A DNA stretch of 64,000 nucleotides from UHGV virus genome UHGV-0026213; one strand, written 5' to 3'. The notes beneath the pieces are model-generated. The model ran no database searches, was not told the DNA's origin, and was given only the letters and a program-made list of their open reading frames with translations. Of the stretch, positions 1,723 to 47,806 are shown one piece after another; within the stretch, counting starts at the first letter, position 1; the number at the start of each line of letters is the position of its first letter. The position numbers and the translations under genes were made by a program. The stretch is from a virus.

Positions 1723-3498
1723 GTGTTTAAAGATGCAATCAAAAAGCTTAAAGAGAGTGGTAAAATAGTACCCTTTAACCGTGCGATTGCGGAAGGAGTC
1801 GGTTATACACAAGCCAAAGATGGTATTCACGATCGTGTACATCGTATCTTGAAACGTGAGCTAGATTACCATCCTGTAGAGAACCCTCGTGTTCCTGAAG
1901 GCTTGGCCGTGTTGGGTGTTCGTTTAATGTCGCCGTTCGAAACTTTTATCTATAAGCTGTCTCGTTCAGAGAGCAGCAGGATGGATAAGCGTCGTGGTGT
2001 GATGTCTATCGCGAATACCGATGCGTATATGGTCATGTCGTCGTTCCGTATTCCTGGAGACTCAAGACCAATCTCAAGACCGATTAACTTGCCTTTCATT
2101 CGTCGTGGTGGGTTGATGAACTATTACGGAACAACGTATCATGTTGCACCTGTTATTCATCAGCCGGGTATCTGTCGTGAGCACGGTGGGGTGTTTGTTA
2201 ATTTTGACTTTAAACGTAAAGCGTCATTAAAATTCTGTAAGCATCCGGTACGGATTTTAGTGAACGGGAAGAAAGAAGAATTGTTCTTGCCCGGAACAAA
2301 CAATTTGTTTAAAGCCAAAAACGCCACACATCCTGACACGGACGAAAAGCCGTTAATGTACTGGCTATTCGGACGTTATGGATTTAAGGAAGCCATCAAA
2401 CGTTATACTGGCGTGGATGTGGAGATATATCCTGCATTCAAAGTACCTGAAATCGATCTCGATAAAAAAGTAGTAATCAGTTCAGGTGAGCCTAAACATA
2501 ATCGGTCGATTATGTACGTAGTGACGGTTCCTGCAGAGGCTTTACCAAATCTCGATAAAGCGGGATGGGATCAAAACGAGCACTTATTACTCGTGGCGAT
2601 TTCTGCATTCTTTAAAGCAGCGCACTATTATTGCGGAAAGCAAGCGATTAAAAACGGCAACGTTGTTCCTTTACCGCCGTTGTTTACCGCGATTAACGAA
2701 CTTGCAATGGAGGACGATGTTGTAAACCTGAATTCCTCCGCAATTTGGCGGGAGATTTTGGGGAGAAGTATTGTTGGACTTAAACCGTCCGATATTGAAC
2801 TGGCACACAGCATGACGAAACACTATACGGAGTGTGAACGCTACGTTAACTCAACATTCCGTGGTGAGTTAATGATGTCAGATCCCGATATCCCGGACGA
2901 TATGGATATGTTTGATTTCTTCTGGTACGCGACGAAGTTGATGGTGAGAACACGCCTTACGAAACAAGGTGATATTCCGTCAATGTATGGAAAACGTCTG
3001 ACCGTAACAGATTACCTGTTATTGGGTGAGCGTGGCTTTACGCCTACCATCGCTGCGATTCGTTTCCACTTGGGACAAACGGAAAATCGAACACCGGAGT
3101 CTTGTGCGAACATGATACGCAGTGCGTTGAATAAAGACATTGTAACCAGCCTGGTATTACGCAACATTACCGGTAATGGTGGTGTAAGTTATTTCAACGC
3201 TTCTACCGAGTCTATGGTACTGGGGGTTTCAACCCATGCTATCAGCCAGACAGAAACAGAATCAAAACGTAACAGCAAAGGCGGTAAGACGGTTAACCTT
3301 AATGACCGGACAAAACATGCCTCTGCATCTCATCTGGAATGTGGTAACGTGTATTACATTCCGAAATCATCACCGTTCAAATCGGGTATTCTCAATCCGT
3401 ATATGAAGACGAACACCCAACTGGTGATGGTACGTAATCCAAAACTCAACGAGTTGATCCAAGCAACCGAAGAAGACATTGCGAAGATTGGCCGTTAA
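1723..3498 (+). CDS. hypothetical protein (591 aa)
   Basis: Long ORF; GTG start 6 nt after AAGGAG (1711-1716); no recognisable motif. Confidence 0.7.
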   Translation: MFKDAIKKLKESGKIVPFNRAIAEGVGYTQAKDGIHDRVHRILKRELDYHPVENPRVPEGLAVLGVRLMSPFETFIYKLSRSESSRMDKRRGVMSIANTDAYMVMSSFRIPGDSRPISRPINLPFIRRGGLMNYYGTTYHVAPVIHQPGICREHGGVFVNFDFKRKASLKFCKHPVRILVNGKKEELFLPGTNNLFKAKNATHPDTDEKPLMYWLFGRYGFKEAIKRYTGVDVEIYPAFKVPEIDLDKKVVISSGEPKHNRSIMYVVTVPAEALPNLDKAGWDQNEHLLLVAISAFFKAAHYYCGKQAIKNGNVVPLPPLFTAINELAMEDDVVNLNSSAIWREILGRSIVGLKPSDIELAHSMTKHYTECERYVNSTFRGELMMSDPDIPDDMDMFDFFWYATKLMVRTRLTKQGDIPSMYGKRLTVTDYLLLGERGFTPTIAAIRFHLGQTENRTPESCANMIRSALNKDIVTSLVLRNITGNGGVSYFNASTESMVLGVSTHAISQTETESKRNSKGGKTVNLNDRTKHASASHLECGNVYYIPKSSPFKSGILNPYMKTNTQLVMVRNPKLNELIQATEEDIAKIGR

Positions 3499-19456: not shown

Positions 19457-20062
19457 ATGTCAGAGATGATTCTCGATTCATTACTATTGATTACAGTATC
19501 GTATATCAACAAAACAGGCAAGTTGCCTAAGCGTGGCGTTACTATCGAACGTGACGGGTTTAAACACCGCTATCCCTTAACGAAAATTTTGGATTTAGCT
19601 GCACGTTTAGCCAAGATGCGTCGTCCGAATAGCGAAGCGGCACCGAAATACGTTTTACTGGTTTTACAACGCGCGATTTCTGAGGTGCGTCGTAAACGCC
19701 GCCGTGCCGCGTTTCGATTTTATCCCAATTCGACGCAACAAGTGGTGGGGGAATACAACGATATGGTTGTCGATCTTCGTGCAGGCCGGAGTAATGTAAC
19801 TGGGTTGGCGTATAACCGCCTTAAACGCATTCTGGACGACAGTGATGCCTTAACCACACCACAAGAGGGTCAAGCAGCTTTAACGCTTCTACGAGGCGCT
19901 GAGCTCGTTATTGTGGACACCGCTGTGCAAGCAGCAAGAATGCAACACTATCTTGCTAAACAAGGGTTAGTCTTGCTGTGCGTAACGTCTGCACAGGCTG
20001 CTAACCTCACCGCACCACAAACGTCAGAAGTGTGGAGTGATCCGATTGTTGATCACCAATAA
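19457..20062 (+). CDS. hypothetical protein
   Basis: 201-aa ORF; terminator follows. Confidence 0.55.
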   Translation: MSEMILDSLLLITVSYINKTGKLPKRGVTIERDGFKHRYPLTKILDLAARLAKMRRPNSEAAPKYVLLVLQRAISEVRRKRRRAAFRFYPNSTQQVVGEYNDMVVDLRAGRSNVTGLAYNRLKRILDDSDALTTPQEGQAALTLLRGAELVIVDTAVQAARMQHYLAKQGLVLLCVTSAQAANLTAPQTSEVWSDPIVDHQ

Positions 20063-20069
20063 AACCTTA

Positions 20070-20105
20070 CCCCTACTTAACGGTAGGGGCGGGTTTCTTT
20101 TTTTA
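20070..20105 (+). terminator. rho-independent terminator
   Basis: CCCCTAC-TTAACG-GTAGGGG hairpin followed by CGGGTTTCTTTTTTTATT. Confidence 0.8.
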
Positions 20106-20133
20106 TTGTAAATTATTACAACTGTTACTCTCA

Positions 20134-20154
20134 TTGTGAGAGGTTTCACTTAAC
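20134..20154 (+). promoter_or_regulatory. conserved intergenic palindrome/promoter-like element (TTGTGAGA...TCACTTAAC)
   Basis: TTGTGAGAGGTTTCACTTAAC, 24 nt upstream of the ATG at 20178; same element recurs at 26175, 45019 and 48391, with variants at 20865 and 40810. Confidence 0.35.
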
Positions 20155-20177
20155 GTGCGTAAAAAGGTAAAACAATA

Positions 20178-20801: not shown

Positions 20802-20808
20802 CCGCTTA

Positions 20809-20846
20809 GGTACCACCGTTGGGTGGTACCTATATTTTATTTTTTC
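20809..20846 (+). terminator. rho-independent terminator
   Basis: GGTACCACC-GTT-GGGTGGTACC hairpin followed by TATATTTTATTTTTT. Confidence 0.85.
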
Positions 20847-20893
20847 TCAGATATATTTTACTTAGGTGAGAGTTACAACTAACTCTTTACACC
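20841..20893 (+). promoter_or_regulatory. conserved promoter-like block plus downstream inverted repeat
   Basis: TTTTTCTCAGATATATTTTACTTAGGTGAGAG; near-identical 30-nt block at 40781 and 44998, each about 50-70 nt upstream of a gene start. Confidence 0.4.
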
Positions 20894-20921
20894 GACTTGT
20901 TAACCTAAAGGAGTATTTACA

Positions 20922-21281
20922 ATGGCTTACAATCACAATTCCATCGTTCTGGCAAAACGTAAATTCGGTCTTCACTTGTCTTACGTAATTCGTCACTTGA
21001 CCACAAAAGACATTACCCAGCGTGAACTTGCCCAGCTTGCGAAAGTTTCACAACCTGTTATCTCGTCTATTAAGAACGATCACTCAGAACGTTTAAGCTT
21101 GCCGATTATGATGAAAGTTGCTGATGCGATTCGTCTGAAATACCAGATTAGTTTTAATTCCGTTAAGGGTCGTTGCTCAGTAACCGTTCACGTAGAGTCC
21201 GCGTTGGACTACGTTGCAAACACGTCCATTAAACGCACCACGAAGAATGTGCGTTTTATCACTAACACCGCAACGCACTAA
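20922..21281 (+). CDS. XRE-family helix-turn-helix transcriptional regulator
   Basis: ITQRELAQLAKVSQPVISSIKN is a canonical HTH_XRE signature. Confidence 0.55.
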   Translation: MAYNHNSIVLAKRKFGLHLSYVIRHLTTKDITQRELAQLAKVSQPVISSIKNDHSERLSLPIMMKVADAIRLKYQISFNSVKGRCSVTVHVESALDYVANTSIKRTTKNVRFITNTATH

Positions 21282-21986: not shown

Positions 21987-22020
21987 GGGGAACTTCGGTT
22001 CCCCTTTCTTTTTTTGTTTT
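21987..22020 (+). terminator. rho-independent terminator
   Basis: GGGGAAC-TTCG-GTTCCCC hairpin followed by TTTCTTTTTTTGTTTT. Confidence 0.85.
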
Positions 22021-25853: not shown

Positions 25854-26139
25854 TACCGACGAAACGAATTTACAGCGCTTGCAACGGGCACTAACTGCAC
25901 CGCTAGGTGGCGAGATTCACGATCGATGGGTAATAGCAAGGGTGGTAGAAATTGACTATTCTCAGGATCAGTTACTGTTAAATAACTGCTCGACGAACGT
26001 GCCTTTCACGTTACCGCGCGCTGTATTCCGCCTTACACCCAACGTTGATGAAATACTGACTATTGACAGGAAACTTCTATCGATAGAACTACAGCATTTC
26101 CCGCTGCCTGGTAAGTCGGTTAACATCGCGCTGTGTTAA
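25831..26139 (+). CDS. hypothetical protein (about 102 aa)
   Basis: Track ORF 25801-26139; ATG at 25831 is preferred and overlaps the upstream 3' end. Confidence 0.45.
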   Translation: MSNQNHTNTDETNLQRLQRALTAPLGGEIHDRWVIARVVEIDYSQDQLLLNNCSTNVPFTLPRAVFRLTPNVDEILTIDRKLLSIELQHFPLPGKSVNIALC

Positions 26140-26174
26140 TGACAGTCTAAAAAACTTAAGATATATTTCATCTA

Positions 26175-26194
26175 TGTGAGAATTCTCACTTAAC
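26175..26194 (+). promoter_or_regulatory. conserved palindrome/promoter-like element
   Basis: TGTGAGAATTCTCACTTAAC, a perfect GTGAGA/TCTCAC inverted repeat, 18 nt upstream of the gene start at 26213. Confidence 0.35.
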
Positions 26195-26212: not shown

Positions 26213-26482
26213 ATGGGTAAGATTTATATTGTTGAGAAACGTGCGGGTAATGTTCTTTCCTATTACGAAGAAGGTAAACCTGAGAAAATTAAAACACTCA
26301 AACTCGACGGATTTGATGTGAAGAGTTTACGCAAGGGTGTGAAGATTACCTTTAAAGGTCTGACTCGCGTAAGTAACTTACACATTGTTAAGGCCGATGG
26401 TACGATGGTTGCGTTAGCACCTGTCAGTGCTGCGAAAACGACAGCAGGTCGTGGATGCTACGGTAGCAGTCGTAAGATTTAA
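26213..26482 (+). CDS. small hypothetical protein (89 aa)
   Basis: ATG after GGAG; terminator follows. Confidence 0.5.
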   Translation: MGKIYIVEKRAGNVLSYYEEGKPEKIKTLKLDGFDVKSLRKGVKITFKGLTRVSNLHIVKADGTMVALAPVSAAKTTAGRGCYGSSRKI

Positions 26483-26488
26483 GCAGTG

Positions 26489-26528
26489 CCCCTCTCTCCT
26501 AACGGAGAGAGGGTACTTTTATTTTTCT
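26489..26528 (+). terminator. rho-independent terminator
   Basis: CCCCTCTCTCC-TAAC-GGAGAGAGGG hairpin followed by TACTTTTATTTTTC. Confidence 0.85.
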
Positions 26529-38748: not shown

Positions 38749-40736
38749 CGGAACCGGATTATTACTTCGTGATCCCTATAGCCGGGCAATCTAATGCGAT
38801 GAGTTATGGTGAAGGATTGCCTCTACCAGCGACGTTGGACGCTCCCGATCCGCGGATTAAACAGATGGCACGCCGTACGAAGGTAACGCCTAATGGAGCT
38901 GATTGTAAGTATAACGACGTCATTCCAGCGGATCACTGTCTGCACGACGTGCAAGATATGTCCGTATTCTCGCATCCCAATGCCAATTTGGACAAAGGTG
39001 AATACGGATGTGTGGGTCAAGGTCTACACATCGCGAAGCGTCTTCTCCCGTATATTCCTAGCAACGCTGGTATCTTACTAGTACCCTGCGCACGCGGTGG
39101 TTCTGCTTTTACAGGTGGTGCAGAAGGTACCTTCGATGACGCCACAGGAGCCTCTGCGGCGTCATCGGTATGGGGGGTGGAAAAACCGCTTTATAAAGAT
39201 TTAGTTAGCCGGACCAAAAAAGCTCTGGAGGTTAATCCTAAAAATAAACTCCTGGCTGTAGTGTGGATGCAGGGAGAGTATGATCTGACTAAAGTAGGTT
39301 ACGCACAACAACCAGCGCTATTTAACGCTATGGTAGAGCGTTTCCGAACTGATCTCTCTGACCATCTCCCTCAGATGCCCGAGTACGACACCGCCGAAGT
39401 ACCATGGATCTGCGGGGACACTACCTACTATTGGAAGGAAAAATATCCTGCTCAATATGAAACCATATACGGTAATTATCGTAACAATGAACAAAAAAAT
39501 ATCTTTTTTGTTCCATTCATGTACGACGATAATGGCCAACGTGTACCGACTAATGATCCCACTGACGATCCTGATATCGCCGCTGCTGCTTACTACGGTG
39601 CTGCCTCCCGTAGTAATAAAAACTGGACGTCTGAAACAAGGAATAGCCATTTCAGTTCTTGGGCTCGACGCGGTATTATCTCAGAGAGAATAGCTGCTGA
39701 GATATTATCAAGAACAGCGATTGGTGCAATGCTCATGACGAAGAACGACACTAAAGAGCTCAAAGACAATATGAATGTGGTAAGAAGCTATACCCCATTA
39801 GTAGAGTCTGTGGGTTATAACGGACGTCGTGGAGATGGTTCCCTGAAAGGGCAAGGTTGGAACAATACCATTGATTGTAACGTAACCGTGCAAAAATCTG
39901 AGGATGGAAATGGACATTTCGTCGAATTAAGAAAGGCTGTAAGTAACAAACCTTGGAATGTAACCAGGTCAATGGCAACAGCTGCAGACATGATACGTTA
40001 CGGTGGACGTCTGACCGTTACTTTTAGACTAAAAGGTGATTTAGCAGCAAATCGTTTCGGGTTAGGACTTTATTGGCGTATCTCCGCGTCCGACCTACCT
40101 TCTGGTACTACACTTGCTGACGCTAGTGTGGCTGATACGAACCCGTACCTAATGTCTTTTTTCTTACAGACCGACGCTACGAATCTTTATCTGATGCATC
40201 ATAAAAAGCAGAATGTGCAATTAGGAACTTTCGGTGCGTACGATAATAACTGGCATACGCTTGAAATCATTTATCCGGGTGACAATAAAATCAAAGTCAC
40301 GCCTGTGCTTGACGGCAAGAATGGCACTCCATTTGATCTGGCGAACAGTACAGCTAAGACCAATTTGAACGAATTGGTTCTGACAGATATTACGAAAGTT
40401 ATTGCCTACGATATCGATATTTCGAAGTTTGAGATCTCGGTCAATCGTGATTCTGGTAGTATAGTGTTATCTGAGGAAGATGTATCGTCTTATGTGTATT
40501 TCCCAGCCACCAACCGTGGCGGCCAACTTACTATTCCTGATCTAGAATATAGCGTGGGTAGAAATATTCAGATCGTGGCAAATAAGGCTGGTTCGATCAC
40601 CGTTAAACCGGAAAATTCAAACGTTCTCATCACTCCAAAGAGTGGGACGGAAGGTCTTGCCAAACCCATTGAGACCAATGAAAGTATTACGCTAATGCAA
40701 GTTGGCTCCGATGGTAAAAGCTGGGTAGTTATTTAA
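38745..40736 (+). CDS. tailspike/fibre body with SGNH-type esterase (sialate O-acetylesterase-like) domain
   Basis: 663-aa ORF; N-terminal YFVIPIAGQSNAMSYG carries the GQSN nucleophile motif of SASA/SGNH esterases; lacks its own anchor domain in frame. Confidence 0.7.
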   Translation: MTEPDYYFVIPIAGQSNAMSYGEGLPLPATLDAPDPRIKQMARRTKVTPNGADCKYNDVIPADHCLHDVQDMSVFSHPNANLDKGEYGCVGQGLHIAKRLLPYIPSNAGILLVPCARGGSAFTGGAEGTFDDATGASAASSVWGVEKPLYKDLVSRTKKALEVNPKNKLLAVVWMQGEYDLTKVGYAQQPALFNAMVERFRTDLSDHLPQMPEYDTAEVPWICGDTTYYWKEKYPAQYETIYGNYRNNEQKNIFFVPFMYDDNGQRVPTNDPTDDPDIAAAAYYGAASRSNKNWTSETRNSHFSSWARRGIISERIAAEILSRTAIGAMLMTKNDTKELKDNMNVVRSYTPLVESVGYNGRRGDGSLKGQGWNNTIDCNVTVQKSEDGNGHFVELRKAVSNKPWNVTRSMATAADMIRYGGRLTVTFRLKGDLAANRFGLGLYWRISASDLPSGTTLADASVADTNPYLMSFFLQTDATNLYLMHHKKQNVQLGTFGAYDNNWHTLEIIYPGDNKIKVTPVLDGKNGTPFDLANSTAKTNLNELVLTDITKVIAYDIDISKFEISVNRDSGSIVLSEEDVSSYVYFPATNRGGQLTIPDLEYSVGRNIQIVANKAGSITVKPENSNVLITPKSGTEGLAKPIETNESITLMQVGSDGKSWVVI

Positions 40737-40742
40737 TTTAAA

Positions 40743-40786
40743 CCGTAGGATGGACTAAGTCCATCCTACGGTTTTTATATTTTTTC
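40743..40786 (+). terminator. rho-independent terminator
   Basis: CCGTAGGATGG-ACTAAG-TCCATCCTACGG hairpin followed by TTTTTATATTTTTT. Confidence 0.85.
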
Positions 40787-40830
40787 TCAGATATATATTA
40801 CCTAGGAGAGAGTGAAATTTACATTCACTC
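40781..40830 (+). promoter_or_regulatory. conserved promoter-like block plus inverted repeat
   Basis: TTTTTCTCAGATATATATTACCTAGGAGAGAG then GAGTGAA...TTCACTC; same block as at 20841 and 44998. Confidence 0.4.
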
Positions 40831-40859
40831 CATTAGTTATAGCCGAAAAGGAGGATTAG

Positions 40860-41711
40860 ATGTCACACCCGTATTATCTCCCGCACATTCTAGCAAATAG
40901 GGACCCTGGTTATTACTACGAACAAACAAAGGGATTTGTTGAACGACTTTATATTCGTGAATTTAATACCGATGAAATGACTGATGGCCAGTATCTAGAG
41001 TATCTAAAAGACCTTTACGCTTTTTCAAAATCGAATAAAGGTGGGTTTGGACGTTACTCGGTCATTAGAGATGATGAATATCGTCATTTAGCTAAGCCTG
41101 TTACGTACCCTATTGTTACACGCGCTTATACATCGGATAGGCAATATAAAGCTGAGCTAAAATTTCCTTTACGGATAGACGGACCTCAAATTAGCGCTAT
41201 AGAAGTAGAAATTCAACCAATTGCTGAAGACTATATTAGAGACTACTTCAAGAAAGCTAAAGACGTACTCGACGAGGGTTTAAGTTACTCTGAAGAAGGT
41301 ACGATTTGTCTTCTCTCGTTGCTCTCGAAGACTTATGTCACGGCAAATTTCCGTGTCTCTGATTCCAGTAACTACAATACACTTACTCCCTCTAAGACAA
41401 AACCGGTTTATTGGGACGATCGGTTAGTCGACAGACAACGCTGGCTTACTATCTTAGATAAAGTAAAATTCGAACCCCCTAAACACACCGAAGACAACTT
41501 TATTTTATTGGACGACTTCGAACCGATCTATATCCCGACACATTTTGAACAAGCCTTACGTCATCGGTTGAAATATGTGTTGGAATTACGGTACGGAAAG
41601 ATAAACGGACTAACCTGTTCTGGTGAATTGGGAGAAGAAGAACGCGAGAAAATAAAAATCGTGTTTGATGAGTTGGTTGAAGATTACATTAAGAAGGAAG
41701 GGCAATTATGA
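40860..41711 (+). CDS. hypothetical protein (283 aa)
   Basis: ATG after AAAGGAGG; downstream of the conserved promoter block. Confidence 0.6.
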   Translation: MSHPYYLPHILANRDPGYYYEQTKGFVERLYIREFNTDEMTDGQYLEYLKDLYAFSKSNKGGFGRYSVIRDDEYRHLAKPVTYPIVTRAYTSDRQYKAELKFPLRIDGPQISAIEVEIQPIAEDYIRDYFKKAKDVLDEGLSYSEEGTICLLSLLSKTYVTANFRVSDSSNYNTLTPSKTKPVYWDDRLVDRQRWLTILDKVKFEPPKHTEDNFILLDDFEPIYIPTHFEQALRHRLKYVLELRYGKINGLTCSGELGEEEREKIKIVFDELVEDYIKKEGQL

Positions 41712-42151
41712 AACCAAATACTACTAATGGCATTATGTTACTTTGTGATTCTGAAACGTTAGCAAACCGTATTCGTGGTTTGATGCAAGTACGTTGGCAG
41801 CAGAAAGTTCTCGTGGATTACGATGCACCGTTTGTTCACGTTAGTTGGTTGCCAGAATCTAGTGATTTCAAAGAAAGTATAACCACGAGAAGAATTAAAG
41901 AATGGTTATCGGCAATCATTAATAAACAGATTACCGTTATCAATTTCCAGTTGTTCGGTACCGCTGAAGAACATGAAATCTTGAAACAGTGTTTAAAAGC
42001 GTTGGGTCTTGCCTTCTCTGTTCGTGGAAGTTGCTACACGGCTTACTTTATCGGTTCACTTGAACTGTTTAAGAATACGCTAATGCTTCAACTAAAAGAC
42101 GACTACAAACTTTTAGATAAAATCGATTTCGAATTCCCAGGCATGATTTAA
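41708..42151 (+). CDS. hypothetical protein (147 aa)
   Basis: ORF overlapping the upstream stop (ATGA). Confidence 0.55.
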   Translation: MKPNTTNGIMLLCDSETLANRIRGLMQVRWQQKVLVDYDAPFVHVSWLPESSDFKESITTRRIKEWLSAIINKQITVINFQLFGTAEEHEILKQCLKALGLAFSVRGSCYTAYFIGSLELFKNTLMLQLKDDYKLLDKIDFEFPGMI

Positions 42152-42197
42152 AGAATCATCGCTTAATCACCCCACCATTTACCTAAAGGAGCATTAA

Positions 42198-42713
42198 ATG
42201 TCAGTAAATATTAACATGAATCTTTATACTAAACGTGAACGTCAGATTCTGGCGAATCAACCCGGTGTTACGACTATCGACGGTAAACCTATTGACCGTT
42301 TAAAAGTTATCGTTGCGCGAAATTGTCATGAACGCGATTGGGACATTACCTACTTCCGTTGTTGTTCGGTCGCAAATGCGCTTACTCAACTCTCTAACTA
42401 CCACTCAGGACCGCTATTAAAAGACTGGGTTTGGTTAGTGCCTAGAACACCCTCAGCAATTGAGTATCCTTCTGGGTTAGTTTATATTCGTCCTGTCGCT
42501 TACCCAGAGCGTCTGAAAGAGTATCTTGAAGTTATCTGGAACCGTCCTCGTAAAGAGCTGGTGACGATTATTAATTTACTGCAGCAGATCGAAATCCCTG
42601 GTGTTTTGAATTTGAAACTCACGTCTCGCGATATTAACCAGGCTTACTGGGAACTAGAGTGGACTGAACCGAAATTCGAAAACAGTAACCGCATTTTCTT
42701 GCATCGGGGGTAA
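42198..42713 (+). CDS. hypothetical protein (171 aa)
   Basis: ATG after AAAGGAG. Confidence 0.55.
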   Translation: MSVNINMNLYTKRERQILANQPGVTTIDGKPIDRLKVIVARNCHERDWDITYFRCCSVANALTQLSNYHSGPLLKDWVWLVPRTPSAIEYPSGLVYIRPVAYPERLKEYLEVIWNRPRKELVTIINLLQQIEIPGVLNLKLTSRDINQAYWELEWTEPKFENSNRIFLHRG

Positions 42714-42715
42714 AA

Positions 42716-42997
42716 ATGTTAGATTGGTTGTTGGGATTAATTAACTCACGTCAACAGGAGCTTTATAAAGAAAACGCACGGTTACGGCAGGAACTTAGTA
42801 ACAATCGTCAAACCAAACGACAATTAATTCGGATGGTAAAACAACAGGCGCGTTGTATACGGGATATCGATTATCAGTATCACCGTCTGAATACCTTAGA
42901 CCCAACAACAAAAGCTTTAGGTAGTACGATTGGACACGCACGTAAAGTCAGTCACGATGCGTTAGTTCGAATCGATACAGTAGAAGAGAAACTGTGA
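42716..42997 (+). CDS. small coiled-coil protein (93 aa)
   Basis: ORF after GGGGGTAAAA; Q/R/L-rich heptads. Confidence 0.5.
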   Translation: MLDWLLGLINSRQQELYKENARLRQELSNNRQTKRQLIRMVKQQARCIRDIDYQYHRLNTLDPTTKALGSTIGHARKVSHDALVRIDTVEEKL

Positions 42998-43040
42998 TAT
43001 AGCCCCTCTCAGGAAATCCTGAGAGGGGGGAGAAAGAAAG

Positions 43041-43349
43041 ATGCATGGTATTTTGATTATTCTTAAAGCCAAACTATACAAAATTGCCTTTTCTTTGTTT
43101 TACGGCCGTATTGTAGAGGAGGTTGTATCGGAATCCGAACCCCATGAAGAAACAGTGATTCGTTTTGGAAAGGAATACACAGTCATGGTTCGTGATGTTG
43201 TGATAGACGTTTACTCTACCGGGGGAATCTTAAAAGGAAAACCTAAGCGCAGATTGTACGGTAAAAGACTTCCTTACATGAGAGATCATTTAATTCTGGG
43301 CTCGTTACAAGAATTTTTCGATTTAAGAGATAATGCAAGAAGTAAATGA
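43041..43349 (+). CDS. hypothetical protein (102 aa)
   Basis: ATG after GGGGGGAGAAAGAAAG; preceded by a GC hairpin without a T-run. Confidence 0.45.
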   Translation: MHGILIILKAKLYKIAFSLFYGRIVEEVVSESEPHEETVIRFGKEYTVMVRDVVIDVYSTGGILKGKPKRRLYGKRLPYMRDHLILGSLQEFFDLRDNARSK

Positions 43350-43352
43350 AAT

Positions 43353-43718
43353 ATGCTGAACAAAATTAAATATTGGTTAAACGATTCGTTTAAAACCTGG
43401 GCTTGTGGTAAGAATGCCTTAACGGTAGTTAAATCGGGCGATTGGTATACAGAGATTATTACATTAGCAAACGGAGGATTGCAAAACATACAAGTTCGTA
43501 ACGTTGTTGTTAAAATAGGGCGCGAGGGAGGAGCAATCTTCAACTCTGAATACTATCAAGTTTCTGCCCTGGAGTTGAAAAACGGTCCGATTTTATTTAT
43601 CGGTACAGCACAACACCTTTACGATACAGTAGTTAAGTTTAGTGAAAGAGTAAAACGTTTAAATGAATCGCTTAGTAAGTTTATTAAAGAAACTGAACGA
43701 ACTACAGTGGAGATTTAA
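43353..43718 (+). CDS. hypothetical protein, tandem paralogue A
   Basis: Shares W.CGK.....VVK.GDWYTE...NG....I.VR.V.VK.GR.GG..F with the next gene. Confidence 0.55.
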   Translation: MLNKIKYWLNDSFKTWACGKNALTVVKSGDWYTEIITLANGGLQNIQVRNVVVKIGREGGAIFNSEYYQVSALELKNGPILFIGTAQHLYDTVVKFSERVKRLNESLSKFIKETERTTVEI

Positions 43719-43721
43719 AAG

Positions 43722-44108
43722 ATGCGTTTATTTTACTTAAAAAGGCGTTTGTCATTAAAAGCCCAACTGTTTGTTAACGAGAAAGTTAAAAACTGGCTGT
43801 GTGGTAAAAGGGTACAATATGTCGTTAAAGAAGGCGACTGGTATACGGAGGTTGTGACTTCCCCTAACGGTGAACTTATAAACGTTACTATTCGTGACGT
43901 TATGGTTAAGGTTGGTAGGGGAGGCGGTCTGTTATTTGGATCAGAAACTATAAGGGTCGTTGCTAAACAATTGAAAGATGGTCGAGTTATATTCAATGTT
44001 ACCGCCCAGAAATACTACGACAATTTATTCGAGTGTCAACGAGCAATAGACAGAATGACCCGTGAGATGCGAAGAATGCACATTACGGAGATCACTATAG
44101 GAGTTTAA
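43722..44108 (+). CDS. hypothetical protein, tandem paralogue B
   Basis: Adjacent duplicate of the 43353 gene with the same conserved Cys/Trp positions. Confidence 0.55.
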   Translation: MRLFYLKRRLSLKAQLFVNEKVKNWLCGKRVQYVVKEGDWYTEVVTSPNGELINVTIRDVMVKVGRGGGLLFGSETIRVVAKQLKDGRVIFNVTAQKYYDNLFECQRAIDRMTREMRRMHITEITIGV

Positions 44109-44419
44109 TGATGGAAAGTAAAATCACAAACACATCGGTACCTGAGAACATTGTCAACTATATTCTCCGTGGTGGGTTGTTAGAAGACAATAAAGAAACG
44201 TGCGATAAACTCGTTTCTCAACTACTACCTATTCGTTCAGAATACTGCGAAATCGTTATCTTAGGTTCCGAGTATTGCGTACGTTCTTACTGCCGTCGTT
44301 ACGAAGCCTTACGCGTCCCTCGTACGTTAGGTGGCGTGATCTTGCTGATTTCGTCTTTTCAAGACGCTCATGTGCGTGTGGCGACCTGGATTGCCAAAGG
44401 AGGTAACAGTGGTTTTTAA
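44108..44419 (+). CDS. hypothetical protein (103 aa)
   Basis: ORF overlapping the upstream stop; Cys-containing. Confidence 0.5.
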   Translation: MMESKITNTSVPENIVNYILRGGLLEDNKETCDKLVSQLLPIRSEYCEIVILGSEYCVRSYCRRYEALRVPRTLGGVILLISSFQDAHVRVATWIAKGGNSGF

Positions 44420-44717
44420 ATTGCTAGGTTTCGGAAAATGCAAAGCGTGCGCAAAGCACGAAGAATATATCAAGTTATTAGAAGAAACAGTTGAAACGCA
44501 GCAAGAACTTATCTCTGAATACCGTGCGAAAACCGGTTCGGTAGAATATTTGACTGTTCTCGTTTGTGCTATTGCTGAATTGGGTTGTGAGGGGAAATTG
44601 CCTAAAGAGGAGATATTAAAACTATTAAAAGAAAAAACGTCGTTTTACCGTAAAGATATTGAAGACTGTAAACGTGAGATTATAAGAGCGAATTGGGAGA
44701 TTATCAATGAAGCGTGA
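44409..44717 (+). CDS. hypothetical protein (about 103 aa)
   Basis: Track start 44370; GTG at 44409 lies 5 nt after AAAGGAGG and is preferred; contains CKAC...C motif. Confidence 0.5.
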   Translation: MVFKLLGFGKCKACAKHEEYIKLLEETVETQQELISEYRAKTGSVEYLTVLVCAIAELGCEGKLPKEEILKLLKEKTSFYRKDIEDCKREIIRANWEIINEA

Positions 44718-44988
44718 AACGGTTGTATTTCGTAGTAATGGTGATGTGGTTTTGTATCGTGGTAAGAAACGTATTCGTACGTTAGATTATCGCGAAGCAA
44801 AACGTTTCGTTGAAGAGTGTGCGTGGTTAATGCATTACGAAGGGAACTATCGGGCCATCTTAGAAGCACCGCGTTTAGAACGTGCAGTTGCGCAGATGGC
44901 AATAGGTAATCCTAAGAACTGTTACCTGGCACGCAAACCAAAATACCTGCAACGTGTCTCGCTAGGCAGTTTTATTGCGGGATTTTAA
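44707..44988 (+). CDS. hypothetical protein (93 aa)
   Basis: ORF overlapping the upstream 3' end by 11 nt. Confidence 0.5.
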   Translation: MKRETVVFRSNGDVVLYRGKKRIRTLDYREAKRFVEECAWLMHYEGNYRAILEAPRLERAVAQMAIGNPKNCYLARKPKYLQRVSLGSFIAGF

Positions 44989-44997
44989 TAAAAATAA

Positions 44998-45045
44998 TTT
45001 CAGATATATATTACTTAGGTGAGAGTACAAAAGCTCTCACTTAAC
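44998..45045 (+). promoter_or_regulatory. conserved promoter-like block plus perfect inverted repeat (GTGAGAG...CTCTCAC-TTAAC)
   Basis: TTTCAGATATATATTACTTAGGTGAGAGTACAAAAGCTCTCACTTAAC, 24 nt upstream of the ATG at 45069; best-preserved copy of the motif. Confidence 0.45.
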
Positions 45046-45068
45046 GAACCATTTTAGGAGAATATACC

Positions 45069-45335
45069 ATGAACTTCACTAAAGCTGATTATGCTAAAGA
45101 ATTAGTTTCTAAAGAAGATTACAAGTTTACTGTTGAACTAGACTATGTATTAACCGAAGATGAAAAAGATGCGCTGTATAAAGCGTTCCGCAAACACTTC
45201 GGTGCGTTGTTCTTTATGGGTTTCCGTAAAGACTCTATCGATATTGGCTATACTGTCGCAGTACGTACCGATGAGGAAATGTTCAATATGGTGTGCGAAA
45301 TCGTCAGTACCATTACTGCTAAACGTGCGATTTAA
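45069..45335 (+). CDS. small hypothetical protein (88 aa)
   Basis: ATG after TAGGAG; terminator follows. Confidence 0.5.
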   Translation: MNFTKADYAKELVSKEDYKFTVELDYVLTEDEKDALYKAFRKHFGALFFMGFRKDSIDIGYTVAVRTDEEMFNMVCEIVSTITAKRAI

Positions 45336-45358
45336 CTTCAACGTTTAATTACACTACA

Positions 45359-45388
45359 GGGTAAGGGAATCCCTTACCCTATTATTTC
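45359..45388 (+). terminator. rho-independent terminator
   Basis: GGGTAAGGG-AAT-CCCTTACCC hairpin followed by TATTATTT. Confidence 0.7.
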
Positions 45389-45416
45389 GATATGTAAAAC
45401 TAAAAGGAAAATAAAA

Positions 45417-46193
45417 ATGAAAACTGTTGAGTTTAAAAATAGCAGTCTTTGGGCATACTCGCACATCATTACGAGTTTCCTGAAAAACGTTACTTCGCAC
45501 CTCGCTTATCAGTTTTGTGGAAATGAGCTCACTATCGGCGGTTTTAACGAGGAAGAATTAAAACGTGCAAAAGAGTTCATTGACGATGTTCTTCATGGCG
45601 ACGCGACGTGTTTAGTTGCGAGTTACGTTGCTAAAGACAAAGGAAGATTAAACATCATGGCAATCTTCCGGGCGCTCTCCGAAAAAGTATACGAAGTTGA
45701 GAAGGCTAGTCATGGCGTTTATATTGTTTACTTTAAACGTTCAGCGGAGAAAAACGCTGATAAACTTCTGGAGTATTTCGACTGTAACCCAGGGGAAGGT
45801 ATGGATGTCTATACGCTCGGTTATGATGGGGTACCTCACCGGAATAACCTTATTCGAGTTGACGAACCTTTTTCAGTCAATGATAACTCCACGCCTATAG
45901 AGTTGGTTCTGGTTCACAAAGATCGTTTCGCGCATTACGATTCTGATACTATTCAACGTGTCCTGAACAACGTTAATATACAGTTTTCACAAACCGAGCA
46001 CCTGGTACGTGCTTGTGTTAGGTCTAATGGCACAACATCATTTTTCCTGGAACGTCAAATCATTTGGCAGACTTATCTGGCTTTGATGGAAGAACTCGAT
46101 AGGATCGAACCAGTTCAGGTTGGTACAAATTGCTTATATTGGATAAAAACAAAGGGGTTCAAGAATGAAAACACTCAATTCAGATTTGCGTGA
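45417..46193 (+). CDS. hypothetical protein (258 aa)
   Basis: ATG after AAAGGAAAATAAAA. Confidence 0.55.
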   Translation: MKTVEFKNSSLWAYSHIITSFLKNVTSHLAYQFCGNELTIGGFNEEELKRAKEFIDDVLHGDATCLVASYVAKDKGRLNIMAIFRALSEKVYEVEKASHGVYIVYFKRSAEKNADKLLEYFDCNPGEGMDVYTLGYDGVPHRNNLIRVDEPFSVNDNSTPIELVLVHKDRFAHYDSDTIQRVLNNVNIQFSQTEHLVRACVRSNGTTSFFLERQIIWQTYLALMEELDRIEPVQVGTNCLYWIKTKGFKNENTQFRFA

Positions 46194-46593
46194 TTATATC
46201 CGTAAGTACCCGGCCAGTATTCCTGTACTGGCTTCACTTACACTTTCAGGTACTGACGTTAACATCTTAACGGTGGAACAGTTCCACGAGATAATAAAAA
46301 CCGCCTATAACTCCATTACCGCAACGTCAGTACGTAAACGTTGCGATTATCCCGATGGTCCTTTCGGTACAGAGATGTTCACAGACTACGCAGTTGCGTT
46401 TCTGTTAGGGCGACACTGCCTCGATAAGCTTAACACTGCTGTAGAAGGGGAAACAGTGACGGAAATAGTCAATGCTTGGCAGCAACGTATTCTTAATGAC
46501 CCTTACTGTCGCCAAGCGTTAAAACGAATGTCCACAACGGCGATTACAAACGACCAACGTGCTTTAGAGTTCTTTAAGCACAACTACAGCTAA
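46165..46593 (+). CDS. hypothetical protein, paralogue of the 47807-48238 gene
   Basis: Shares R.Y.R..P, TAY, YP.G..G..M and DP...L..MS.T pattern and length (about 142 aa) with the 47807 gene. Confidence 0.5.
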   Translation: MKTLNSDLRDYIRKYPASIPVLASLTLSGTDVNILTVEQFHEIIKTAYNSITATSVRKRCDYPDGPFGTEMFTDYAVAFLLGRHCLDKLNTAVEGETVTEIVNAWQQRILNDPYCRQALKRMSTTAITNDQRALEFFKHNYS

Positions 46594-46615
46594 TTTACCA
46601 AAAAGGAAAAATGAT

Positions 46616-47737
46616 ATGTTTAATATCGAAATTACCCCGCTCGTTAAAACTGAAATCCGTCCGGTTCCCGAAGCACAATTACTCGATCAGCTTTATCATG
46701 TATTCCTGGATAAAGGTGTACATTTCCGTGTAGAGCAGGTCAACGATGAAAGCATCGTGTTCTACTGGACTCACTGCAACGATTATCTTTGCGACACTAT
46801 TGCGGTGGAAATCGGTGAGTTACTCAACCCGGTAGCCGAGAACGCCAAGGTAAAAGCGACCGAGACAGAGCAACCGAAAGTCGAAGAGCAGCAGTGGTCT
46901 ATAAACAATGAAGACTCGTCATACGTAAATCAATATGATGTTGAAACGATCGAGAAAATTAAAGAGGCATTAAATATCCTCTATCCCGATGCCTTATACA
47001 TTAGTCAAGAATACGACATGTTAGCTTTCAGGATGAAGGAATTCGATCCTAAGATCATGAAAGCTATTCGCATCGTCGTTGCTCTGATCGTCAAAGACGC
47101 CGTTCGACTTATTTCGGTTCGTGATATCGGAAAAGAAGACGCAGATGAAATCATGCGTGGTGCTGTTCACGAACACAAGGGGAAAATTCGTGGGTCTAAT
47201 TATGTTGACGGCACGCTAACTGTGCTTGTTGATAATGATCCTGTCGTTATTAAATGGTTCGAAGAACCGTATTCCTTTACTTACACTGGTCCAGAAGCCG
47301 TAGCGATTAATGATACCTTGACAGCTTTCTATCCTACCAAAGTAGAGACTAAACTCGAGGGCGAAAAACTCACCATTAAATGGAAATGGTGGGACGCTGC
47401 TCTTGACGAAGAAATTAGCAACCTCATTAATGAGATTGTTGACAATCGTCTACGTCTTCTGACAATCACTACTATTGGGAAAGAAGATGCCGATACGTTT
47501 ATGCGTGATATCGCTCGTTGGTTTCCTGAGAAAGTCCGTCAGTGGACTTACACAGACAATATACTTACCATTCTACTCAACTATGAACCCGGTATTATCG
47601 GAAAGTTAAAAACTCATCTGCGTGACTTGGCGGGAGCTCGTTTTCTTAAGAATAATGAGCACTCGATCGACGCGATCTTTAGAGAAATATCATCTGGCAT
47701 AGGCTGCGATTGCCCTGCTTGTCAAAAATTTCGTTAA
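46616..47737 (+). CDS. hypothetical protein with internal duplicated module and C-terminal CDCPACQ motif
   Basis: 373 aa; two copies of an I..D..RL....IGKEDAD.FMR...... module; C-terminal GIGCDCPACQKFR suggests a zinc knuckle. Confidence 0.6.
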   Translation: MFNIEITPLVKTEIRPVPEAQLLDQLYHVFLDKGVHFRVEQVNDESIVFYWTHCNDYLCDTIAVEIGELLNPVAENAKVKATETEQPKVEEQQWSINNEDSSYVNQYDVETIEKIKEALNILYPDALYISQEYDMLAFRMKEFDPKIMKAIRIVVALIVKDAVRLISVRDIGKEDADEIMRGAVHEHKGKIRGSNYVDGTLTVLVDNDPVVIKWFEEPYSFTYTGPEAVAINDTLTAFYPTKVETKLEGEKLTIKWKWWDAALDEEISNLINEIVDNRLRLLTITTIGKEDADTFMRDIARWFPEKVRQWTYTDNILTILLNYEPGIIGKLKTHLRDLAGARFLKNNEHSIDAIFREISSGIGCDCPACQKFR

Positions 47738-47806
47738 TTAACTAAAATCGTACAAGGGGTGGTAAACCACCCCTCCATTATTGTAATTACCTAAAGGAGT
47801 ATTAAA

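Follow-up and report, generated by a model that had tools for sequence, protein, structure and literature searches.

A short repeat lies at positions 44998-45045 of the UHGV virus genome UHGV-0026213, between a run of small open reading frames (ORFs) and the gene for an 88-residue protein, and related copies occur elsewhere in the same 64,000-nucleotide stretch, which was analysed as a whole and is called the window here. An earlier note on this DNA had described the repeat as a conserved intergenic promoter/operator-like motif in at least six copies, one of them upstream of an XRE-type regulator gene. In this paper we locate the copies with a position-weight matrix, compare them with the early promoters of phiKZ-related jumbo phages, and examine the inverted repeat at their downstream end. 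The matrix was derived from related phages and refined iteratively, with a score threshold of about 19 set by shuffling. Five sites in the window exceed it, every one on the plus strand, intergenic and co-directional with the genes downstream. Listed as early promoters on the strength of sequence comparison, with the two sub-forms (class A and class B) defined below, they are:

44979-45020, plus strand: class-A early promoter, matrix score 55.9, predicted +1 at G45021
20826-20867, plus strand: class-A early promoter (TTTTTCTCAGATATATTTTACTTAGGT), matrix score 46.8, exact pattern match, predicted +1 at G20868
40766-40807, plus strand: class-A early promoter, variant ending in CCTAGGA before GAG, matrix score 42.2, pattern match, predicted +1 at G40808
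26136-26177, plus strand: diverged early promoter (AAGATATATTTCATCTATGT), matrix score 33.9, predicted +1 at G26178, possibly G26176
567-608, plus strand: class-B early promoter (GGATAGATATTAT-TAATGG), matrix score 39.1, predicted +1 at G609, without a 5' hairpin

Four of the six copies claimed earlier are among these five, but 20134 and 48391 score below 11 and are taken up at the end; the site at 567 (+1 at 609) had been overlooked. A near-identical block had been placed at three positions. A 32-nt pattern of this block has exact matches at 20841 and 40781, where 0 are expected in shuffles, but the copy at 44998 has only the 3' 27-28 nt in common (TTCAGATATATATTACTTAGGTGAGAG at 44999-45025), and its 5' part reads AATAATT, not TTTTTCTC. 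Site 44979 runs from an A/T-rich upstream block into CAGATATATATTAC (the -10-like element, 45001-45014) and then into TTAGGT. The AT-rich -10-like element takes the form ATATATATTAC or ATATTTTAC at 45004-45014, 20851-20861 and 40791-40801, with the variants GATAGATATTAT at 591-602 and, more diverged, ATATATTTCAT at 26161-26171, and in all five sites a G stands at N6+1 after it. Upstream of about -19 is a T/A-rich block whose matrix columns are informative (consensus ATTAAAAATAATTT). The conserved block is about 26 nt long and includes CAGAT and YTAGGTGAG.

The sites lie 24-50 nt 5' of start codons, which bears out the intergenic position upstream of gene starts that had been described, and all five significant sites that the matrix returned in the window are intergenic. 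The genes downstream are small ORFs with no family or with a family of unknown function, plus the helix-turn-helix (HTH) gene. The copies had also been said to follow terminators as a rule. This is so for three of the five, with terminators at 20807-20832 and 40740-40774 directly 5' of the promoters at 20826 and 40766, and at 535-558 before the promoter at 567, but none was seen upstream of 44998 or of 26136.

Judged by its gene content, the window comes from a phiKZ-related jumbo phage of the SPN3US/Asesino type, which has a multisubunit RNA polymerase (RNAP) of its own; one of the subunit genes lies in the window:

1723-3498, plus strand: multisubunit RNA polymerase beta-like subunit gene (phrog_2943, 6.9e-171)

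The product has 77% amino-acid identity to the 'putative RNA polymerase beta subunit' of Erwinia phage Asesino and 72.6% to that of Salmonella phage SPN3US, in which several genes are annotated as RNA polymerase beta subunit. Other ORFs of the window match jumbo-phage virion proteins and internal head protein families, and the gene order is syntenic with SPN3US from about 72.7 to 146 kb, including the thymidylate kinase/HTH pair (gp166/gp165); an orthologous class-A promoter precedes the HTH gene gp165 in SPN3US, and the class-B promoter at 567-608 has its SPN3US ortholog at 72505. When window positions 40000-48000 were compared with a phage collection at the nucleotide level, the motif was the sole part with matches, and these fell in unannotated stretches of SPN3US-, SEGD1-, phiEaH2-, Stratton- and Asesino-type jumbo phages. 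About 12 jumbo contigs of IMG/VR, 107-246 kb long and mostly 220-246 kb, together with one 7.4-kb contig, contain the 23-nt core in 37 stretches; one of the contigs, 3300029126_000001 (225 kb), is 90-99% identical to the window. The complete SPN3US genome, joined from its parts, holds 24 promoter sites of two sub-forms, 23 of which lie on the main coding strand. Its predicted initiating Gs include those at 56313, 65432, 94258, 114005, 165706 and 223296. Class-B sites of SPN3US precede several genes annotated as RNAP subunits (28988 before gp232; 15633 and 15726 before gp244), and its class-A sites stand in front of small unknown genes.

One relative is filed under a bacterial name. Record NZ_CP173450.1, 'plasmid p98232-contig_4' of E. 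coli 98232 (221,873 bp, circular, from a urinary isolate), is an SPN3US-like jumbo-phage genome that has 78-93% nucleotide identity to window positions 36-51 kb and shares the class-A promoters found there. It points to E. coli as a possible host of this phage group; the record itself hints at a carrier state or contamination.

Early-promoter consensi have been reported for phiKZ (TATATTAC), 201phi2-1 (TTTRARR_BTATATTACDWHDGTG) and OBP/N1M2 (TTTCARRYAKATATTATYWAAGTG) (PMC7058600), and the phiKZ motif is described as an extended -10 box with a T-rich block upstream of -19. According to a review, all jumbo phages that encode a multisubunit RNAP have an AT-rich motif of about 10 nt near -10 before early operons, which is the early promoter wherever transcripts have been profiled and which must be recognised by the virion polymerase (PMC7598289). 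Differential RNA-seq of AR9 gave AAATATATATTAT-N6-G(+1), and the early transcripts of that phage accumulate under chloramphenicol (PMC5312081). The window motif, TTTCAGATATATATTAC-YTAGGT-G, fits these consensi and matches the AR9 form ATATATTAT-N6-G(+1), and the starts were therefore predicted at G45021, G20868, G40808, G26178 and G609; the N6-G assignment follows the AR9 paper and the sequence pattern of phiKZ, where the seven promoter-looking copies of TATATTAC in the first 50 kb also carry a G at N6+1.

Two sub-forms occur in one genome. Class A is TTTCAGATATATATTACYTAGGT followed by the initiating GAG (that is, TATATTAC-YTAGGT-GAG), with a uniform leader of 45-64 nt (median 51), and class B is AGATAGATATTATCT-N4 before the initiating G (GATAGATATTATCT-N4-G), with shorter leaders (median 34). 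The former corresponds to the 201phi2-1 consensus and the latter to that of OBP/N1M2. In the window, sites 44979, 20826 and 40766 belong to class A and site 567 to class B; site 26136, which is kept in the relative L006, is intermediate between the two.

On this evidence the repeat is, by sequence comparison, a member of the phiKZ-type early promoters, so that the phage-specific promoter class proposed in the earlier note stands. We put a probability of about 0.78 on the reading that it is an early promoter of a phiKZ/SPN3US-type jumbo phage, most likely read by the virion RNAP, with a 5'-terminal RNA hairpin rather than a repressor site at its downstream end. Both the virion polymerase as reader and the G as +1 are what we infer from related phages. 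The anatomy would be an A/T-rich upstream stretch, the -10-like CAGATATATATTAC, six bases (YTAGGT) and a start at the G of GAG. Homology with phiKZ, 201phi2-1 and AR9 suggests as reader the multisubunit RNAP carried in the virion and delivered along with the DNA, rather than the host sigma-70 holoenzyme, and the HTH gene at 20922 would be just one of the early genes behind such a promoter.

The promoters of the window resemble those of phiKZ, 201phi2-1, OBP/N1M2 and AR9 in their AT-rich -10-like element, in the G 7 nt after it, in the T/A-rich block upstream of about -19, in their position before operons of small unknown genes, and in belonging to a genome with a split multisubunit RNAP. They differ in the greater length of the conserved block, in the coexistence of two sub-forms, and in the coupling of class A to a hairpin at +1, which in phiKZ is marginal (z -2.0, n=7) and goes unmentioned in the transcriptome papers examined. 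The kind of promoter is already known and the lineage is that of SPN3US-like jumbo phages; the core finding is ordinary for this phage family. Nothing relevant to the motif strings ATATATTAC, GATAGATATTAT, TATATTACTTAGG and TATATTACCTAGG was found in the searchable literature, and two features are apparently undescribed there, namely the coupling of the class-A promoter to a 5'-terminal hairpin and the occurrence of the promoter with phage-derived genes in E. coli islands. The sites give a predicted map of the early transcription units of an uncultured SPN3US-like phage that probably infects E. coli, and the clade-wide two-form consensus offers a means of annotating the early genes of related genomes.

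The inverted repeat overlaps the predicted starts, and in the window it takes these forms:

45019-45040, plus strand: hairpin GUGAGAGU-ACAAAA-GCUCUCAC, minimum free energy (MFE) -12.1 kcal/mol, z -5.07, 0 of 200 shuffles as good
20868-20887, plus strand: hairpin GAGAGUUA-CAAC-UAACUCUU, beginning at the predicted +1, MFE -6.5, z -3.92, 0 of 200 shuffles as good
40808-40831, plus strand: hairpin G.GAGUGAA-AUUUACA-UUCACUCC, MFE -7.6, z -4.35 (about -4.4), 0 of 200 shuffles as good
26176-26189, plus strand: perfect palindrome GTGAGAATTCTCAC, then TTAAC; z -2.33 when folded from 26176 and -0.53 from 26178

The palindrome at 26176 is by this modelling a weak hairpin unless the transcript begins at G26176, and the class-B leader at 609 shows no fold (z +0.74). 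A repeat of GTGAGA...TCTCAC had been ascribed to all six sites; it is literal at 26176-26189 and 45019-45040, but elsewhere the arms differ (GAGAGTTA/TAACTCT at 20868, GAGTGAA/TTCACTC at 40808) and 48391 has none. The TTAAC said to follow it is present at 20134, 26175, 45019 and 48391, and further on at 20865, but is absent at 40810. At 45019-45040 the hairpin is followed by TTAAC and the leader up to the start codon at 45069; in four orthologs of this copy the stem is kept, with changes in the loop and in one stem pair. In orthologs of the HTH-gene promoter the stem is likewise kept, and the loop goes from 4 to 8 nt. Rfam models at their gathering thresholds gave no match anywhere in the window.

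The hairpin was then considered across the class-A leaders of the window, of SPN3US and of the IMG/VR contigs, 44 non-redundant ones in all. Positions +1 to +32 fold with a mean MFE of -6.42 kcal/mol against -2.08 +/- 0.27 in shuffles (z -15.9; n=44), pairing begins at +1 to +3 in 95% of the leaders against 43% in shuffles, and in 30 of 38 it begins exactly at +1, the predicted start. Class-B leaders, in contrast, have no clear folding excess (z -2.9), and pairing from +1 to +3 is seen in 47% of them, equal to shuffles. Among the 44 copies the arms form 30 distinct pairs, the loop measures 3-11 nt and the whole repeat spans 16-31 nt; real leaders fold better than chimeras in which the 5' arm of one copy is joined to the remainder of another (z -8.5). 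The sense strand folds better than the antisense strand in 32 of the 44 and worse in 10 (p=0.0018), as G.U pairs would lead one to expect.

A MAFFT alignment of 41 promoter-leader sequences was ungapped, with the 3' arms out of register, and was unusable for pair counts; it was therefore replaced by a covariance model from 10 copies of equal length and an alignment to that model. The model retrieved 51 copies, including those of the window at 20844, 44997 and 40784. In the resulting alignment 88.6% of the cells are standard pairs, compared with 75.0 +/- 1.5 in shuffles, and 41 cells show double-sided changes, compared with 16.4 +/- 3.2. The covariation score of 0.289 (compared with 0.111) was reached by 0 of 500 shuffles, slid controls gave at most 0.049, and compensatory changes fall in four of the eight stem pairs. 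Since arm sequence and spacing vary while the pairing is kept, with compensatory changes and with G.U pairs that favour the sense strand, the element points to an RNA hairpin and not to a shared operator for a rigid dimer. The inverted repeat thus fits the template of an RNA hairpin at the transcript start, the RNA level being read from the covariation, and a class-A transcript would begin with a stem-loop of 5-9 bp that includes its first nucleotide.

In the stretch from this hairpin to the Shine-Dalgarno sequence, 18 of 41 class-A leaders contain TTAAC (3.1 +/- 1.7 expected), which explains why TTAAC had been noticed after the repeat, and 16 of 41 contain GACTAT or GACCAT, where about 0.4 would be expected; class-B leaders have no enrichment of TTAAC or GACYAT. 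The motifs take the forms TTAAC(C) and (AATC)GACYAT, for example at window positions 45041-45052, 20890-20905 and 26190-26194. Shared ancestry of duplicated cassettes could also yield them. TTAAC resembles the start of the 'epsilon' enhancer of T7 gene 10, whose leader has a hairpin at the 5' end of a transcript begun by a phage polymerase and, ahead of the Shine-Dalgarno sequence, an enhancer with UUAAC; the class-A leaders would be alike in all three respects.

As to what the hairpin does, the proposed mechanism is that it would hold the 5' end base-paired, so that the earliest phage mRNAs would be shielded from the 5'-end-dependent decay that RppH and RNase E carry out in the enterobacterial host. 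In E. coli, a stem that takes in the first nucleotide is the classic safeguard against this kind of decay. Cleavage by RNase E is far slower with a base-paired 5' end, and the ompA and papA mRNAs are stabilised by 5' stem-loops (PMC3997798 and references therein). The class-A leaders are like these in that the stem-loop lies, as predicted, no more than 2 nt from the 5' end and is followed by an unstructured leader and a strong Shine-Dalgarno sequence; they are unlike them in that many transcripts of a single promoter class carry the element, instead of its belonging to the untranslated region (UTR) of one gene. Because the transcripts that bear the hairpin would be the first made, before any phage countermeasure, mRNA stabilisation is judged its likeliest role by this analogy, at roughly even odds provided that the element acts as RNA. 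A 5'-terminal hairpin on one sub-class of promoters may in any case be a clue to what lets the earliest phage mRNAs survive, or to how they are dealt with, while phage proteins are still absent.

Copies of the promoter are also found in bacterial chromosomes. The 61-nt promoter region, used as query against 5,426 complete E. coli genomes, matched 2,326 of them, and an element of about 84-102 nt, in which a terminator is followed by ATTGAAAATATTTTCAGATATATATTACCTGGGT and the initiating GAG (matrix score 50.0), is present in 2,582 of the 5,426 (about 48%). Examples are:

L045, 1495-1540: copy in the CFSAN064036 chromosome
L046, 3001-4250: copy in WAT
L047, 3001-3102: copy in O157:H7
L048: a further E. 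coli copy

The element sits in CP4-like islands, with genes for a dynamin-family protein, a YjcZ/RdcB-family protein and a patatin-like phospholipase upstream and with DUF932, antirestriction, JAB and toxin-antitoxin module genes downstream, and the strains diverge directly after its predicted +1. ORFs behind it have 73-76% amino-acid identity to genes of three jumbo contigs (L002, L020 and L021) and 37-45% to the SPN3US genes behind promoter 165706, and in the phages these homologues lie directly downstream of a class-A promoter. A two-gene version is at least 80% complete in 1,883 genomes, and comparison of two E. coli variants gives dN/dS values of 0.24 and 0.13. Genes of 227 aa and 136 aa are present in the WAT type. 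The island ORFs have signal-peptide-like N-termini, and neither Pfam nor PADLOC has a family for those behind the promoter copy. The intergenic element differs at 1 of 135 positions, as compared with 12 of 315 in the flanking patatin gene, which is weak evidence for conservation of the element. The 5' hairpin is not formed in the E. coli copies examined.

The simplest reading of these sequences is that a phage early operon moved with its promoter into the island and that its genes were kept, in which case pieces of virulent nucleus-forming phages would enter host genomes and persist there, and the island copy would be a natural reporter for whether the virion polymerase reaches host DNA. A bolder proposal, that the class-A cassette is an immediate-early module with an RNA part read by a factor and that the E. 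coli copies are host genes which fire from the phage polymerase as infection-triggered exclusion or defence, strikes us as a long shot. A possible parallel to the cassettes is the PeSL of T4-like phages, a repeated unit of terminator and early promoter between small variable genes and at indel junctions (PMC4122927). The present elements are similar in that terminators adjoin three of the five window promoters, that one promoter-ORF-terminator cassette separates the window from L006, and that the E. coli copies diverge after the promoter. They differ in that PeSL promoters are sigma-70 early promoters whose stem-loop is the upstream terminator, whereas the present elements have a promoter of the phage-polymerase type and, downstream of it, a further hairpin in the predicted transcript.

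Several points weigh against a virion-polymerase promoter with a 5'-terminal stabilising hairpin. The searchable literature shows no mapped transcription start for SPN3US-like phages, the +1 being extrapolated from AR9 and phiKZ, and the binding of the virion RNAP to this sequence is suggested by homology. The alignment was fitted to the covariance model and the copies are mutually related, which makes the covariation statistics optimistic. The role of the hairpin as stabiliser is an analogy, and a short T-run after 19 of 43 hairpins would fit attenuation too. Weak sigma-70 hexamer pairs are present at two of the five sites, 26139-26167 (ATGACA-17-TATATT, 10/12) and 44985-45012 (9/12), and about 35-48% of E. 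coli chromosomes have the same promoter in front of genes that are intact and subject to purifying selection, so that the host polymerase could also use it. These points bear on the alternatives, which are now taken up.

The whole class-A leader (5' hairpin, TTAAC, GACYAT and Shine-Dalgarno sequence) may instead be a signal to a phage or host factor, either for selective translation or for handling or export from the early-infection vesicle. The strikingly uniform leader length, the enrichment of TTAAC and GACYAT and the restriction of the hairpin to class A all suit such a signal, and how mRNA leaves the early-infection vesicle is an open question (PMC13282480). The common motifs, however, may reflect cassette duplication, the stem varies in sequence, no such factor has been described, and the hairpin is lost in the E. 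coli chromosomal copies examined, two of which keep intact downstream frames. We regard this explanation as unlikely.

The motif may also be a strong host sigma-70 promoter with an A/T-rich UP element, from which the host RNAP would read the early genes as in T4 or T7 class I. Its TATATT/TATATA looks like a -10 element and the block upstream is A/T-rich, and the hexamer pairs and E. coli copies mentioned above speak for it as well, the conserved genes behind those copies being in need of some promoter. No -35-like hexamer at a proper spacing is found at 20826 or 40766, however (567 lies outside the two regions scanned), and sigma-70-like sites are not enriched in those two regions (27 vs 32.9 and 24 vs 22.9). 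Conservation extends to CAGAT and YTAGGTGAG, which are outside the sigma-70 elements, and the ATATATTAY-N6-G rule holds in phages of Pseudomonas and Bacillus too, the motif tracking the phage polymerase across hosts that include enterobacteria. Early transcription of AR9 needs injected proteins only, and phiKZ infection is reported to be rifampicin-insensitive. A host promoter is decidedly improbable on these grounds.

That the hairpin with its T-run is a promoter-proximal attenuator or pause site, limiting or timing early transcription, is very unlikely. The TTT at the end of or after the 19 hairpins noted above would suit it, and transcription in phiKZ and 201phi2-1 often ends prematurely in the 5'UTR, but the stems, short and rich in A/U, reach about -6 kcal/mol, over half of them have no T-run, among them the copy at 45019, and the hairpin is complete only about 20 nt past initiation. 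The conserved feature, moreover, is the pairing of +1, which termination does not require.

The inverted repeat had been interpreted as an operator for a dimeric DNA-binding protein, with autoregulation suggested. Under such a model the protein, for example the product of the following gene, would also shut off the motif-linked genes:

20922-21281, plus strand: XRE/Cro-C1-type HTH gene, 119 aa (HTH_37, 2.5e-7; HTH_26 and HTH_3 above their cut-offs; phrog_7126, 1.3e-31)

The gene is a true member of the XRE type, as had been stated, and in SPN3US as in the window it lies behind a promoter of this kind; the repeat covers the predicted start, where repressors typically bind, the first three stem positions (GAG...CTC/CTT) are near-constant, and the stem GAGAGTTA/TAACTCTT recurs in 6 of the 44 copies. 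Several observations weigh against the model: there is no common half-site among the arm pairs, the spacer is not fixed and changes even between orthologous HTH-gene promoters, the changes in the arms are compensatory, the G.T pairs favour folding of the sense strand where a duplex operator would be strand-neutral, and class-B promoters do without the repeat. The operator is accordingly the most improbable of these explanations, and autoregulation finds no support, as the HTH promoter is indistinguishable from the others and its repeat is not operator-like; some protein may still bind it.

The coliphage N4 has a single-subunit polymerase and a DNA hairpin with a 3-nt loop upstream of the start. 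N4 is alike in having an injected virion polymerase and early promoters with a small hairpin (PMC4496689). A DNA-hairpin promoter of that type was rejected on position, loop length and strand asymmetry, the hairpin here lying downstream of the predicted start with loops of 3-11 nt and with G.U pairs that point to RNA.

With the early promoter and its 5'-terminal RNA hairpin as the preferred reading, the genes behind the predicted starts can be set out. The HTH gene opens an early unit whose terminator is at 21987-22004, and the other units begin with:

45069-45335, plus strand: first gene of the early unit behind start 45021, 88 aa, no family match, followed by a terminator at 45358-45380
40860-44988, plus strand: ten small ORFs behind start 40808, mostly without family match
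26213-26482, plus strand: lone small early gene, 89 aa, phrog_12339 (function unknown), followed by a terminator at 26490-26513

Window positions 40000-46000, which hold the starts at 40808 and 45021, have a G+C content of about 0.40 as compared with about 0.45-0.48 elsewhere, and their ORFs are mostly without family match; low-GC, family-poor stretches of this kind are typically found where an early region evolves fast. Directly behind the class-B promoter is a 16-codon ORF (MEKIQFKLKICVIIKI) at 641-691 on the plus strand, with a strong Shine-Dalgarno sequence, which precedes the ORF at 702-1712 and the RNAP subunit gene. The layout is the same in L016, and the equivalent spacer of SPN3US has two promoter-like sites (72505 and 72703). 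A tRNA scan of the window found none.

Two sites counted as copies earlier were not accepted as members. The first, around 20134 (20105-20160, plus strand), lies upstream of the thymidylate kinase gene and has the hairpin CTCTCA-TTG-TGAGAG; it is a junction or a relic. At this spot L006, which is 94% identical, has an extra class-B promoter, an ORF of about 205 aa and a terminator. Alignment of window 20090-20177 with L006 2224-2990 places this cassette between the terminator after the ORF at 19457-20062 and the thymidylate kinase gene; in the window the corresponding interval is only about 60 nt long and keeps the A/T-rich upstream part of that promoter, so that one cassette-sized indel separates the two.

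The second, around 48391 (48360-48405, plus strand), has only a partial resemblance to the motif (TTTTTACTTATTGTGAG) and precedes a virion-structural paralogue, a late-type gene (DUF7941 / phrog_1037). The spacer in which it lies, 48239-48405, is 167 nt long and 93-97% conserved in two relatives, and consists of a terminator at 48245-48272, a long T-rich run and about 100 nt more. Lying before the first virion-structural paralogue, this spacer may hold a middle or late promoter.

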